Of a stretch of 64,000 bases of DNA, positions 2,006 through 15,412 are shown piece by piece. Origin of the DNA: a virus; the IMG/VR virus record IMGVR_UViG_3300036770_006511, positions 13,090-77,089 of that record; one strand, given 5' to 3'. Positions within the stretch are counted from its first letter, which is position 1, and every line of letters begins with the position of its first letter. Position numbers and translations under genes: made by a program. The notes below the pieces were generated by a model, which saw only the letters and a program-made list of their open reading frames with translations, ran no database searches and was not told the origin of the DNA.

Positions 2006-3676
2006 TTAGGACTCTTTTCTTAACTTTCCGTCGTAGAATTCAAATCTATCATGTTCAGTGGGTGTTGCAAAAAGTAATGCGGACTTGATATTACCCTTTT
2101 TACCTTCCTGATAAATGTAACTCATCCAAGTTTGTTCGAATGGTCTATCCCATTTGGTTGTTAGGAACATTTTTTCATTTCCGTGACGTGTTACCACTTG
2201 AGGCCAGTTACAATAATAAACCTCACCTACACCATAAGCCAAACCTTTGTACGAACGAACTTCAGTGAACTTTGTTCTTGGAGCATTTGGGTCAAGTCCC
2301 TGAACGGGTAGTGTTGGTTTTTCGGGCCAATATTCTTCCCTAATACTCTGAGGTACATTGTACCAAGACCATTGAGTTCCATTGTCTCCATAAAATTCCG
2401 TGAAATTCATCTTCAAGAAATCCAAGGATTGGTCTTTAGCAATTTGGATGACTTTGTTGTATAGATTGGGAATGTGTCTTATAAAACCATTCTTACAAGT
2501 TTCGTTCTCTCCATTGTAAAAGAACATGTCGTCTTCAAAAAACCAATAGAAGTCGAATTTGTTTTCTTGGGCGTGTTCGGCAATCCATTGTCTACCACCA
2601 CAAATACCTAAGTTATCTTTCTTGATGTGTTCGAAACCATGTTGTTCACATAATTCCAAATATCTTTCAGTTGTTGTTAAATCAGAGGAGTTGTCCAACA
2701 AAAACTTCTTTGGTCTTTCCAAGAAATTCTTATCGTAGATTTCCATAGATTTAATTAAAGTTTCAAACTGATTGGGACTATTAAATGTAATTACGTACAG
2801 AGCAGCGTTGTTGATGTTCAAATCCGAATAAGTGGTTTTCCCTGCAGTGTTTTTGATTTTGTGAGTACCGTTTTTCACATCCTCACAAAATTTACCAATC
2901 AAACCGTTAGATTCAATTTCGTAATAATCAAAAAGGTCGGGGTGTCGGTACAACAAAATACTGAAAAGAGATTCTTCAGTTCCCATGAAACCATCAGACA
3001 AAGTTTGATTCATCACATTGTAATACAAACCATTTACGTCATTAATTGCATCTTTTCTACCTCCGAAAATTCCTCCACGACAAACTAACTTTACGTGATT
3101 TCCCGCGTAGTTATTTATCTTTGGGTAACTGAACCCATGGATTTCTCTTTCAGCGTTATACGGAAAAGCAATGAAACCAAAATTGTTGAACAACTTATCA
3201 AATTTGTGATGAATTTTGTCGTGAGTAAAATAACCTGGGTGAACGGTGTTTGTAATTCCTGCGTCAATCCAAAATAAATGGGTAGAATCGAAAGAATCAA
3301 AAATTCTGGCATCATTCAGTAAAAACATTTTGGACATCACAAGTGGATTATACATTTCCAATCTTGCTTGAGTTGATTCGGGTAACCAACCTGATTGATT
3401 ATACCAATCAGGATTTGTTCTTATTTGCTGTATTCTATCGTAGAAATTACTTTTAAACCATTCTTGACTCCGAGTAATAAATTGAGTCTTCGATTTGTCT
3501 CGTCTTTGCCAAATAAAATTTTCCAAATCAGAATCACCAAAAATAATTAGATTGGCATCGATTTGTAAAAGTTGTTCGAATTTATCTAAATAGTGTTGGA
3601 AAGAACGAGACCACCCTTCTTGTAATTCATCTCGTTTTATGTTCCAAAGTCCTGTTACAAATGTTACGTTATTCAT
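2006..3676 (-). CDS. Two-domain glycosyltransferase: HtrL/WlaTC-like N-domain plus GT-A C-domain
   Basis: VTFVTGLWNI, LFWIDAG, GGIFGG and GTEES in the N-half; FYWFFEDDMFF (DxD-like) in the C-half. Confidence 0.7.
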   Translation of the reverse strand: MNNVTFVTGLWNIKRDELQEGWSRSFQHYLDKFEQLLQIDANLIIFGDSDLENFIWQRRDKSKTQFITRSQEWFKSNFYDRIQQIRTNPDWYNQSGWLPESTQARLEMYNPLVMSKMFLLNDARIFDSFDSTHLFWIDAGITNTVHPGYFTHDKIHHKFDKLFNNFGFIAFPYNAEREIHGFSYPKINNYAGNHVKLVCRGGIFGGRKDAINDVNGLYYNVMNQTLSDGFMGTEESLFSILLYRHPDLFDYYEIESNGLIGKFCEDVKNGTHKIKNTAGKTTYSDLNINNAALYVITFNSPNQFETLIKSMEIYDKNFLERPKKFLLDNSSDLTTTERYLELCEQHGFEHIKKDNLGICGGRQWIAEHAQENKFDFYWFFEDDMFFYNGENETCKNGFIRHIPNLYNKVIQIAKDQSLDFLKMNFTEFYGDNGTQWSWYNVPQSIREEYWPEKPTLPVQGLDPNAPRTKFTEVRSYKGLAYGVGEVYYCNWPQVVTRHGNEKMFLTTKWDRPFEQTWMSYIYQEGKKGNIKSALLFATPTEHDRFEFYDGKLRKES

Positions 3677-4550
3677 AAATTCTATTAAATTCTTCTAATA
3701 TTCGATAAAAACTTTTTTTATCTTGATAATATGAAATATCCAAATCTCTTGGTCCAGAGTCAGGACACCACCAAATATCGAATTCTTTAGTTTCAAACAA
3801 TTCTTTGTGATTGACCCTCATTAAGGACATTATGTGTTCTTCGTGTGGTAAACCTCTGTCTTCGGTCATTATTTTTTGTAAATAATCCTCAAAAATGTTT
3901 ACAACATTATCCCATTTTGATTTGTGTCCACCAAACATTCCACCAATGACATGACGACTTGGGTCATAATCTGTATACCACTTTCGATGGACTGTCCCTG
4001 ACCAATAATAATTTACATTTTCTTTTGCTAATAACAAAAATTTATCACCAGTATCTTCTATAACGTTTTTCAAAAACTCATTGTTGAACAAAGATGACTC
4101 ATAATATCTTCTTTCGGAACCTGTACTGTTCAAATATTTGTTGGGGATTAAACCCGTGTGAGATAAGCCAGCATCTATCCAGTAATAATAATCATATGAT
4201 TTATCCTCATTCCACCACCAATGAAACTTAGAATATTGAATCTCAACACATCTGTCACCTCTTTTTGTTTCTTCAACATTTTTCACTTCATTTATTAAAT
4301 CAAAAAATTTTGTTTTGGAAATGTCAAAAATTTCGAATTTTAATCTATTTTCATCAATATGGTGGTCAGAATAAAAAAAGTTTTTCAACAATTCGATTTC
4401 TCTTTCGGAAGTGTAACATAAAAAATCTGCGTCGGTAATTTTTAACAAGGAAAGTAAACTCCAACGGTAATGACCACCTCTTGAAGCTCTACCACCGAAT
4501 TCGGTACCTGACAAATCACTATAAATACAGGTTATAAATTTAGTTGACAT
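3669..4550 (-). CDS. HtrL/WlaTC-like glycosyltransferase
   Basis: YYWIDAG, IGGMFGG, HEEHIMS; paralogous to the N-domain of the neighbouring 556-aa gene. Confidence 0.65.
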   Translation of the reverse strand: MSTKFITCIYSDLSGTEFGGRASRGGHYRWSLLSLLKITDADFLCYTSEREIELLKNFFYSDHHIDENRLKFEIFDISKTKFFDLINEVKNVEETKRGDRCVEIQYSKFHWWWNEDKSYDYYYWIDAGLSHTGLIPNKYLNSTGSERRYYESSLFNNEFLKNVIEDTGDKFLLLAKENVNYYWSGTVHRKWYTDYDPSRHVIGGMFGGHKSKWDNVVNIFEDYLQKIMTEDRGLPHEEHIMSLMRVNHKELFETKEFDIWWCPDSGPRDLDISYYQDKKSFYRILEEFNRIYE

Positions 4551-13800: not shown

Positions 13801-15412
13801 CGGGACATCCACCTGAAAAGGTCAGATTGTCTTTCAAACCTTGGGTTCCCCCACCCACAGAAATATTAAAAGGAACGCCAACTTGTCTTTCTTTATATGT
13901 GTTTAGTGGTCTTGGGATAATTTCCTCAAAATCTTCACACACCATTAAAAGTTTTCCGTTTACAAAAACTTTTAATTTACCTAAACGATATTCCCTTTCT
14001 TGTAACCAAAGGTCGTTTATATGAACTTCAGTTGTCTTTGCGGGTTTGTAATCATCATAACCCTCTTCGTGGGTTATTGGTGGTATAACCAAACTAACAC
14101 TATTATTGGCAGAAGATGCTGTGAAAACTTCTTTTTCAATCTGACCTAACCCTCCTAAATAATCTAAATCCTTACAATCGTAATAGGCGTTTCTCTCAAA
14201 TACGGCATCAATCTGTACCCAATGTTCTAAGTTGATATATGGTGTGAATTTACAATCTTCGAAAATTCCTCTTGTAGAACACCACTCGACGGTAGTAACA
14301 CCAGTAACAAATGTAGTGGCTGTAAGACAACTTCCTGAGGGAATACAACTTCCTGTGATAAGGTATTCTTTAACACAAACTCTCGGGTTACCAGTATCAC
14401 CACTAAATCTGATGGACATTGCATTAGACACACCATCGTAAAGTGGGTCCAATTCTTTCACAGATGCTTCTGTCGAACAACTACAAGGGCAACCACAATT
14501 ACAATTCGAAGATGTGACACCCGACGGTTGGTATACAGGTATACAATCTGCACCTGTCCCCCCCGTTATGGAACAACCACAGGTGTGCATACAAGTAAGT
14601 CCTGAAGTTACTCGGGTGTAACCAGTATCAGAAGATGGACTACCATCTGCATAGTGATAAAATTTGTTTTCGGCTCGAGAACCCATAAAGAAAAAAGTTC
14701 CCTTGTTTTCTGGATAACGAGCATTTAATCCAACATTGGTATCACCTGTGAATCGGTACTTCAACATCATTTCAACAGTCCATCCCTGACTCATCCTAGT
14801 TGGGAGAACTTCATAGTCATAACCTTGAAGTTTGTAGAAACCTTGGTAGAATCCACCGTTTAATTGCGCCACGGTTCCGATATCACCACCAGCATTGACG
14901 TAACTCAAACCATATGAGTATGAATCATCGTTCCACAATCTATTTTCAGGGGTTGTGTTTCCTGAAATAGGATGCATCTTAAATCTTCGGTCGTAAATGT
15001 ATCGGTTGTAAGTTTCTGCGGTGGTTGTGTAAAGTCCGGTGAAAGCGGTCATTGTTATTCCCGACATTTCTTTAGTAAGTCCGTTGTCAATACCTGTCAA
15101 ACCGACATCACAAATTTCTGTAGTTTTAGGACAAAAATTAGGGTCTATATTGTCAGGATTATAAAAGTTTTCTGAAACTACTGTATCATATCTAAAATCA
15201 TCAACTAACGGTGATATGGTTGTCCCCGTTGAATTGAAATCAAATTTGAATGGCATTCTATTACCATCATCTTCAGCAATCAATAACGGAGAAAAAATAA
15301 CCTCCTGATTAAAGTCTCGAGCGTCATCTGCCAAACAGAAATCTGTTATTTCATTGACGGGTTTAAGACCAATCTTTCTATAATTGTATTGATTGAGATT
15401 TTGGTATGCCAT
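10898..15412 (-). CDS. 1504-aa putative virion protein with LamG/ConA-like domains and Thr-Pro tracts
   Basis: LamG-type endings ([56 protein letters not shown]); [14 protein letters not shown] motif; long Thr-Pro tracts. Confidence 0.8.

Follow-up and report, generated by a model that had tools for sequence, protein, structure and literature searches.

A GT60-type glycosyltransferase cassette beside Thr-Pro tract proteins points to probable cytoplasmic protein O-glycosylation in an uncultured jumbo phage

The locus described here raises the question whether a phage can place O-linked glycans on threonine-rich tracts of its own proteins. It lies in the window that we analyzed, a 64-kb stretch (bases 13090-77089) of a 77-kb viral contig from IMG/VR (IMGVR_UViG_3300036770_006511), where genes for proteins with long Thr-Pro tracts stand next to a cassette of four genes, one for a GT60-type glycosyltransferase (GT) and three for putative partner enzymes. 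All are on the minus strand, as are bases 1-15412 of the window throughout. The contig comes from an uncultured freshwater jumbo phage, and its CheckV rating of 25% completeness puts the whole genome at about 300 kb; among its close relatives are G001 (321 kb, with terminal repeats) and G002 (295 kb, 98% complete). The reading that we favor, with a probability of roughly 0.6, is that the Thr-Pro tracts of this phage are O-glycosylated in the cytoplasm by a system that it encodes itself. A non-random link between GT60 genes and Thr-Pro tracts, going beyond inherited synteny, was observed in both phages and bacteria.

Four of the five co-oriented genes at 6625-15412 carry long tracts of the TPTxTP type, as a preliminary description of this DNA had stated. 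The tracts sum to 741 residues, including 318 Thr and 50 Ser (window criterion), and none was found in any other open reading frame (ORF) of at least 100 amino acids (aa) in the window. Thr is the commonest tract residue, and most tract threonines have Pro at -1, +1 or +3. Enzymes of family GT27, the polypeptide N-acetylgalactosamine (GalNAc) transferases, favor Pro at these same positions. When the four sequences were read directly, none showed a hydrophobic signal-like N-terminal segment, in agreement with the earlier statement that the acceptors lack signal peptides.

The largest tract protein, of 1504 aa (10898..15412, minus strand), is a candidate acceptor and, judging from its sequence, likely an appendage protein. 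It is modular and combines a conserved N-terminal part of 660 aa with six Thr-Pro tracts, of which the longest spans 158 aa with 71 Thr. Its C-terminus contains two LamG/ConA-like domains (Pfam Laminin_G_3, E-value 1.5e-22) and matches phrog_8510, 'virion structural protein' (E 7.7e-25). The homologue in G001 is 67% identical over 625 aa, and an atlas search with the N-terminal 660 aa gave viral hypothetical proteins only. The other three candidate acceptors, also on the minus strand, all match phrog_15511. The 188-aa protein (9629..10195) has two small Cys-containing globular parts with a 46-aa Thr-Pro tract between them, and a homologue of 188-189 aa is kept in many related loci. The 607-aa protein (7770..9593) consists of five globular modules of about 60-100 aa and four tracts of 38-83 aa. 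The 362-aa protein (6625..7713), encoded directly upstream of the enzyme genes, has three globular modules of about 62-77 aa and two tracts of 87 and 66 aa with 66 Thr. Cys-containing modules of about 60-100 aa recur in these three smaller proteins (6625-10195). In G001, seven of the eight tract proteins scanned match phrog_15511 and one G001 tract protein matches phrog_11772; both are families of unknown function and are uninformative on whether the tract proteins are located in the virion. The fifth gene in the row (10211..10882, minus strand) encodes a 223-aa protein that has neither a Thr-Pro tract nor a homologue in the complete relative G001.

The enzyme encoded next to these genes (5285..6535, minus strand, likely start at the ATG at 6532) is a soluble protein of the GT-A class, which we propose from its sequence and structural model as an initiating polypeptide N-acetylhexosamine (HexNAc) transferase. 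It had been assigned to GT60 at the outset, with a profile search against Pfam PF11397 ('GlcNAc') proposed as the check. That search bears the assignment out, with an E-value of 1.7e-68 and 232 bits against a cut-off of 21, covering profile positions 2-44 and 91-350 of 352, and the protein also matches phrog_24687 (E 3.6e-167). The sequence has the motifs IASYRD, DSH and HGEE. An alignment of 46 homologues, reaching down to 35% identity, shows IASYRD conserved and no change at D93 and H95 of the DxH motif (D93-S94-H95), at E205 and E206, or at H230. In a Foldseek search of the PDB with the AlphaFold2 (AF2) model, which has a mean predicted local distance difference test (pLDDT) score of 95.8, all of the top ~50 matches were polypeptide GalNAc-transferases (ppGalNAc-Ts). 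The top 29 entries in VIA-align were ppGalNAc-T catalytic domains (Z 19-22.7, root mean square deviation 3.2-4.0 Å, 260-285 residues aligned within residues 1-327), and other GT-A enzymes reached Z 18 at most. Most structural alignments end near residue 305-330, and a beta-rich C-terminal domain of about 90 aa (328-416) is extra in the phage enzyme. By sequence, no PDB chain matched at E ≤1, and a homologue search returned close relatives only (at least 80% identity) with uninformative names. The enzyme has no membrane anchor and would therefore act in the host cytoplasm, so the earlier claim of cytoplasmic action stands as far as a soluble, anchorless enzyme can be read from the sequence. Characterized GT60 enzymes are polypeptide alpha-N-acetylglucosamine (GlcNAc) transferases. 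Those of the Golgi modify Thr-rich mucin domains, and the cytoplasmic Gnt1 modifies hydroxyproline of Skp1 (PMC8724618, PMC6939170). The ricin-type lectin domain at the C-terminus of GT27 is missing from the family (PMC8724618).

The four enzyme genes (2006-6535) abut or overlap by 8-11 nt and are therefore taken as one operon. After the GT60 gene comes that of a 247-aa GT25-like protein (4540..5283, minus strand), a proposed extending transferase that is 52% identical to a homologue in G001. Its match to Pfam GT25 (PF01755, E 1.1e-9) is above the cut-off yet aligns only residues 7-44 with profile positions 3-40 of 199, so that the GT25 label given in the preliminary description stands for the N-terminal 38 residues. 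The same description had named two HtrL-like GTs. This holds for the 556-aa protein (2006..3676, minus strand), which has an N-terminal HtrL_YibB domain (PF09612, E 6.4e-16, residues 3-251) and a C-terminal GT-A domain with an invariant EDD motif, but less well for the 293-aa protein (3669..4550, minus strand), a proposed extending or tailoring enzyme that found no Pfam match at E 0.01 or better. Its kinship with HtrL comes from a weak pairwise alignment (E 8e-5) with the HtrL domain in the neighboring 556-aa protein and from language-model neighbors in an atlas, 23 of 30 being HtrL_YibB clusters, some from giant viruses. Homologues of the 293-aa protein occur in Xanthomonas phage XacN1 (29% identity) and in bacterial GT60 loci including L272, L278 and L258.

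HtrL_YibB is a family without tested function; in the AF2 model of the 556-aa protein (pLDDT 88) this region forms a GT-A-like domain, giving two GT-A domains in all. The protein is well conserved, with 57% mean column identity in an alignment (A2) across phages and bacteria of several phyla. Its best Foldseek matches are the two-domain GTs LARGE1, LH3, Mimivirus R699, COLGALT1, K4CP and PmHS2; the first four work on protein-linked glycans, and K4CP and PmHS2 polymerize alternating sugars. Because the TM-scores are low, with differing domain orientations, the structural likeness is a lead only, one that fits an extending, possibly bifunctional, transferase.

We propose that the soluble GT60 enzyme would use host uridine diphosphate (UDP)-HexNAc, most likely UDP-GlcNAc, to prime Thr (and Ser) residues with a first sugar in the TPTxTP tracts, both of the four upstream-encoded proteins and of similar tract proteins from elsewhere in the genome. 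The GT25-like, HtrL-like and two-domain HtrL/GT-A proteins would then extend this primer, and transferases from a sugar island described below may join them. The tracts link globular modules and LamG-type lectin-like domains, so that their glycosylation would yield mucin-like stalks, stiff and resistant to proteases, on appendage or decoration proteins of the phage. The interpretation given in the preliminary description is thus supported in part: the genes and tracts, the operon, the family and fold of the initiator and the statistical link between GT60 and Thr-Pro tracts are observed, and we infer from them sugar transfer, its donor, the acceptor residue, the glycan structure, the location in the virion and the benefit to the phage.

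Bacterial genomes provide a view of the link between GT60 and Thr-Pro tracts, since many of them encode GT60 homologues of 36-71% identity. In 64 genomes with genome-wide counts of TPTxTPT codon matches, we took 21 kb or less around the homologue as the locus. GT60 loci make up 0.34% of this DNA yet contain 220 of the 1399 matches (15.7%), a 46-fold concentration among genomes that are not phylogenetically independent. At least one match was found in 20 loci, where no more than 3.8 were expected, a count that was reached in none of 200,000 simulations.

The proteins that carry these tracts differ between phyla. Tat-signal-like proteins composed almost wholly of Thr-Pro repeats are encoded near GT60 in a deltaproteobacterium, an acidobacterium, an actinobacterium and an alphaproteobacterium. 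In Gemmatimonadaceae (L258:9230-9955 and L255:8510-9235, both plus strand), the gene directly upstream of GT60 and the two-domain GT encodes a PqqD-like N-terminal domain, of the type that recognizes ribosomally synthesized and post-translationally modified peptides, with a hydrophobic stretch and a tail rich in Thr-Pro behind it. In Ralstonia, Achromobacter, Paraherbaspirillum and Burkholderia, VgrG spikes of type VI secretion systems have Thr-Pro-rich stretches and lie 1-5 kb from the GT60 homologue (L300:12267-15131, L290:15049-17520, L270:13900-16389, L319:15280-18504; all minus strand). At the VgrG position inside the GT60 locus are found 54 of the 64 Thr-Pro matches of the whole Ralstonia genome and 44 of the 48 in Achromobacter. 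Of 80 bacterial loci, 21 have the two-domain GT next to GT60, and several have the 293-aa HtrL-like protein. Tracts were found in 7 of the 21 loci with the two-domain GT vs 9 of the 59 others, a difference that is not significant (Fisher P 0.11).

Effector genes, too, usually stand beside VgrG genes, and cytoplasmic glycosylating effectors are known in other systems. GT60 might accordingly modify host proteins during takeover, or be an effector delivered by type VI secretion, with the Thr-Pro proteins not being substrates at all. We regard this as highly improbable, since it leaves unexplained the concentration of Thr-Pro matches in the VgrG beside GT60, the small repeat-only proteins beside GT60 in other phyla, and the three conserved partner transferases.

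The closest bacterium-labeled homologues (L244-L249) are on contigs of low GC content assigned to Saprospiraceae and related Bacteroidota, with one in a Melainabacteria metagenome-assembled genome (MAG). Their GT60 is 67-71% identical to the phage enzyme, five of the six loci have the two-domain GT (57-62%), and one contig is 230 kb long. They may be mis-binned phage relatives or may hint at the host group.

Within the phage clade to which the window belongs, 372 IMG/VR contigs encode a relative of the GT60 enzyme, and genes upstream were surveyed in the best 80 of these, in which the enzyme is 78-96% identical. Thr-Pro-rich ORFs are located directly upstream and co-oriented in nearly all of the best 80 for which upstream DNA is present, and their number and length vary widely. 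A near-identity DNA search of the region against a phage collection gave no match. More distant GT60 homologues (45-49% identity) are found in the Xanthomonas phages XacN1 and Xoo-sp13 and the Stenotrophomonas phages CM1 and RAS14. XacN1 and the 77-kb contig have only nine ORFs in common. Three are cassette genes, namely GT60 (49%), the two-domain HtrL protein (41%) and the HtrL-like ORF (29%). The first two are better conserved than the six remaining ORFs, among them capsid, portal and terminase (23-34%), and the polymerases are unmatched. Behind GT60, the phages XacN1, Xoo-sp13 and RAS14 have a carbamoyltransferase gene together with the partner genes seen in the window, except that RAS14 has no GT25-sized ORF; the GT25-like gene of XacN1 and Xoo-sp13 is recognized by position and size only. 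The carbamoyltransferase, of 765 aa, lies between GT60 and the HtrL-like gene (L003, XacN1 219791-222088; L084; L085) and has no counterpart in the cassette of the window. It suggests a carbamoylated glycan in the Xanthomonas and Stenotrophomonas jumbo phages.

XacN1 encodes 14 Thr-Pro-rich ORFs, several of them in structural modules. The nearest to the cassette, at about 9 kb, is ORF325, a Thr-Pro protein of 3313 aa that follows the baseplate wedge genes. Eighteen further XacN1-type loci from IMG/VR keep GT60, with the two-domain GT adjoining in 16; in eight of the 18, Thr-Pro codon tracts are found no more than 10 kb from GT60, where control matches numbered 0, and in two divergent loci a tract is directly upstream. 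In XacN1 virions at least two bands stain with Schiff reagent as glycoproteins, and Yoshikawa et al. (2018) proposed ORF334, the GT60 homologue, as their maker, drawing no link to GT60 or to Thr-Pro tracts (PMC5852040).

The N-terminus of the family B DNA polymerase (polB) is encoded within the window, and the cassette adjoins polB both here and in XacN1-type phages. In addition, the C-terminal domain of the 556-aa protein gave a weak, sub-threshold match to TAGT (E 0.0014) and a match to phrog_842, 'beta-glucosyl-HMC-alpha-glucosyltransferase' (E 2.6e-5). The position and these matches would suit a cassette that glycosylates bases of the phage DNA against restriction through hydroxymethyl-pyrimidine hypermodification, as do T4 and TET-associated systems, and GT-A enzymes can act on DNA (bioRxiv 10.1101/2023.12.21.572611). 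Known DNA sugar systems go together with TET/5mYOX or ThyA-type hydroxymethylases (bioRxiv 10.1101/2023.12.21.572611). However, the nearly complete, cassette-bearing G002 has no ThyA-family gene, no gene of a hydroxymethylation route adjoins the cassette, and Tet_JBP found no match in five genomes, a negative that is weak since the controls gave none either. The bacterial pair of GT60 and the 556-aa enzyme lies beside Thr-Pro proteins and VgrG, not DNA-modification genes, and the top structural matches of the initiator are polypeptide transferases. Of the explanations considered here, we give DNA glycosylation the least weight.

The association was also sampled from the opposite direction by scanning IMG/VR for a (TPTx)4 codon pattern and choosing, from the matches, 46 records on contigs of about 30 kb or more. 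PF11397 was found in 19 of these 46 records chosen for a long Thr-Pro tract alone, most of which are fragments. Among the tract-bearing records that are at least 90% complete, GT60 is present in 4 of 11 and absent from 7. Co-occurrence of GT60 with Thr-Pro proteins in relatives had been set out beforehand as a check; it holds for XacN1-type phages and bacteria and fails in these seven records. Nor must acceptor and enzyme genes be adjacent, as they are not in XacN1, Xoo-sp13 and RAS14.

Several observations weigh against a dedicated glycosylation system for the tracts. The seven records indicate that Thr-Pro tracts do not need GT60 and may be plain linkers. The clade counts come from close relatives and are not phylogenetically independent, and 60 of 80 bacterial GT60 loci have no tract within 10 kb by the strict pattern; some low-GC 'bacterial' MAG contigs may moreover be mis-binned phage DNA. 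XacN1, Xoo-sp13 and RAS14 have replication genes next to the cassette and lack a Thr-Pro gene immediately before it, and the stained glycoproteins of XacN1 were reported as bands, not as named proteins (PMC5852040). The sole pointer to the four Thr-Pro proteins as putative virion components is the PHROG name of the LamG/ConA-like C-terminus, and the activity of the prokaryotic and phage branch of GT60 is so far a predicted one. Finally, the best terminator-like site of the region, a hairpin at 6598..6621 (minus strand; 9-bp stem, 5 G-C pairs, T run), stands between the acceptor genes and the enzyme operon. The terminator reported in the preliminary description is thereby confirmed, and the two sets of genes are therefore on separate transcripts.

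These points raise the alternative that the tracts are plain unmodified spacers, with the cassette and the sugar island glycosylating host envelope polysaccharide or lipopolysaccharide, a lipid or a small molecule. Adjacency would then be a by-product of late or accessory genes sharing a variable region. The terminator, the position of the cassette away from tract genes in cultured XacN1-type phages and the near-complete tract-bearing records without GT60 all favor it, as does the presence of the polysaccharide polymerases K4CP and PmHS2 among the structural neighbors of the 556-aa enzyme. On the other hand, the 46-fold concentration of tracts at bacterial GT60 genes and their recurrence beside VgrG and in small repeat proteins are difficult to account for unless tracts and enzyme are functionally linked. 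In structure the initiator comes closest to polypeptide transferases and not to enzymes of polysaccharides; Pfam gave no membrane, flippase or lipid-carrier family for the scanned ORFs; and glycoproteins were stained in XacN1 virions (PMC5852040). We consider plain spacers rather unlikely.

A different question is which residue would accept the first sugar. Gnt1, a founding GT60 member, is hydroxyproline-specific (PMC6939170), and prolines of the tracts could likewise be hydroxylated by a phage or host 2-oxoglutarate-Fe(II) (2OG-Fe(II)) prolyl hydroxylase before GT60 glycosylates the hydroxyproline, as on Skp1. Distant relatives of 1600-2500 aa fuse three or four GT60 domains to oxygenase domains of PF13640/PF13661, which would tie GT60 to proline hydroxylation outside the Skp1 pathway. 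These tandem GT60 fusions are metagenomic (P0122, P0123, P0125, P0133), and two have an AhpC/peroxiredoxin domain. The complete relatives G001 and G002 encode three and two PF13640 proteins, respectively (G001:28772-29065, 152970-153233, 162023-162214; G002:288908-289207, 291415-291681), one of them inside a 623-aa ORF. In locus L250, a prolyl 4-hydroxylase (P4H)-like gene just upstream of GT60 overlaps a Thr-Pro-rich ORF on the opposite strand, with the frames unresolved. Against this, the PF13640 genes of G001 and G002 are far from the cassette, and there is none in XacN1, in Xoo-sp13 or on the 77-kb contig of the window. A P4H-domain match by hidden Markov model was found within 10 kb of GT60 in 2 of 80 bacterial and 0 of 98 phage loci, and Thr, not Pro, is most abundant in the tracts. 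Since XacN1 and Xoo-sp13 have no PF13640 gene and P4H genes are rarely near GT60, Thr is the likelier acceptor on the sequences available, and the hydroxyproline route appears improbable, though worth attention.

Glycosylation of Thr-Pro tracts by the cassette can also be considered in a wider frame. The cassette may be one case of a widespread, hitherto undescribed prokaryotic 'mucin-type' O-glycosylation module, consisting of GT60, the highly conserved two-domain GT-A protein, with its likeness in build to the alternating co-polymerases LARGE1, K4CP and PmHS2, and the HtrL-like protein, that is common to at least two unrelated jumbo-phage lineages, at least five bacterial phyla and type VI spikes, and that may lay down a repeating polymer to give proteoglycan-like fibers. 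We put this forward tentatively, as a possible but doubtful extension. If true, the enzymes that start mucin glycans in eukaryotes would have a prokaryotic relative in this module.

Besides genes for a T4-type major head protein, a prohead protease, a portal protein and a large terminase, the window contains a 24-kb island of sugar-nucleotide and GT genes (18047..41863, plus strand), recognized with Pfam. Its soluble transferases comprise a GT2_5+GT4 fusion, a GT2, and a GT11 and a GT10, the latter two being fucosyltransferase families. Sugar enzymes are a GDP-mannose dehydratase (Gmd), a PfkB kinase, an epimerase, a DegT aminotransferase and a HAD+nucleotidyltransferase protein, and tailoring enzymes are two FkbM methyltransferases, a sulfotransferase and an acetyltransferase. 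Genes for an exonuclease, a dUTPase and PhoH are interleaved with them. The island may supply or extend glycans of the proposed system. For its ORFs at 24605-34394, the complete relative G001 yielded no homologue, and glycan decoration therefore probably differs between relatives. No flippase, polymerase or lipid-carrier family was detected by Pfam in the scanned island ORFs, but several of these ORFs had no match of any kind, so this negative lends weak support to glycans on soluble acceptors. GtfA/GtfB and SecA2/SecY2 families were likewise not detected by Pfam in the cassette proteins or in the scanned ORFs of at least 150 aa at 18047-48910, several of which were matchless.

The proposed system shares features with several known ones. 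Like the protist GT60 enzymes (Trypanosoma cruzi OGNT, the Dictyostelium Golgi enzyme and Gnt1 of Dictyostelium and Toxoplasma), the phage enzyme belongs to PF11397, has the GT-A fold and the DxH motif, and is associated with Thr-rich, Pro-containing tracts; it resembles Gnt1 in being soluble and, by prediction, cytoplasmic. A ricin-type lectin domain is not recognizable in it, with no separate search made of its C-terminal domain. Unlike the protist enzymes, it is encoded by a prokaryotic virus, carries the extra C-terminal domain of ~90 aa and, in place of PgtA/AgtA, is accompanied by an HtrL-type two-domain GT and a GT25-like protein. Structurally, it is matched best by the catalytic domain of the animal and apicomplexan GT27 GalNAc-transferases (Z up to 22.7), whereas sequence identity is only 10-13%; the phage enzyme has no recognizable lectin domain and does without their membrane anchor and secretory pathway.

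O-glycosylation of mycobacteriophage virions has reportedly been shown by experiment (Freeman and colleagues, Cell Host Microbe, 2023; cited in PMC12619734). In that system, phage-encoded GTs reportedly modify the phage's own structural proteins in the cytoplasm, as is proposed here from genes alone. Unlike those proposed for this cassette, the mycobacteriophage glycans are reported to sit on the C-termini of capsid and tail-tube subunits, and neither a GT60 initiator nor long repeat tracts are reported for them. Cluster F1 mycobacteriophages list an HtrL/YibB protein among their GT genes (PMC10453261).

The likeness to the serine-rich-repeat adhesins of Gram-positive bacteria is one of logic only. 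There, the cytoplasmic GlcNAc-transferase GtfA/GtfB initiates and further GTs extend, all encoded beside the repeat acceptor, and here too a repeat-tract acceptor is encoded beside a cytoplasmic initiator and several extenders. Those loci, unlike this cassette, use a GT-B (GT4) initiator, Ser-rich repeats and accessory Sec export. Giant viruses glycosylate their own proteins, as in Vp54 of chloroviruses and the Mimivirus fibrils (PMC9614988, PMC10117803). Like this phage they have their own sugar-nucleotide pathway, many soluble GTs and no export machinery; HtrL-like proteins occur in Nucleocytoviricota, and Mimivirus R699 is a structural neighbor of the 556-aa enzyme. They differ in their eukaryotic hosts and in linkages and acceptors, and no pairing of GT60 with Thr-Pro proteins is described for them. 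The nearest parallel in a cultured phage is XacN1 ORF330-334, a homologous cassette in a genome with many Thr-Pro-rich ORFs, which differs from that of the window by the added carbamoyltransferase and the replication-gene neighbors in phages that otherwise share almost no genes.

Mucin-type initiation by GT60 and GT27 is regarded as a eukaryotic trait, and, to our knowledge, mycobacteriophages are the only tailed phages shown to glycosylate themselves. In the literature searched, no paper was found on GT60 enzymes in phages or bacteria, or on Thr-Pro linkers in connection with phage glycosylation. The novelty asserted in the preliminary description therefore extends to the pairing of GT60 with Thr-Pro tracts, but not to phage-made virion glycoproteins as such, which had already been proposed via ORF334 (PMC5852040).

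The proposal is directly testable, because XacN1 is in culture and has Schiff-stained virion bands. If true, very abundant freshwater jumbo phages as well as cultured phages of plant pathogens such as XacN1 would carry densely glycosylated stalks, with a bearing on adsorption, on resistance to proteases and grazing, and on the recognition of therapeutic phages by antibodies. The bacterial module, including that of the type VI spikes, would suggest a broad unstudied class of cytoplasmic protein O-glycosylation, and the system would offer a point of reference among prokaryotes for how mucin-type glycosylation arose.

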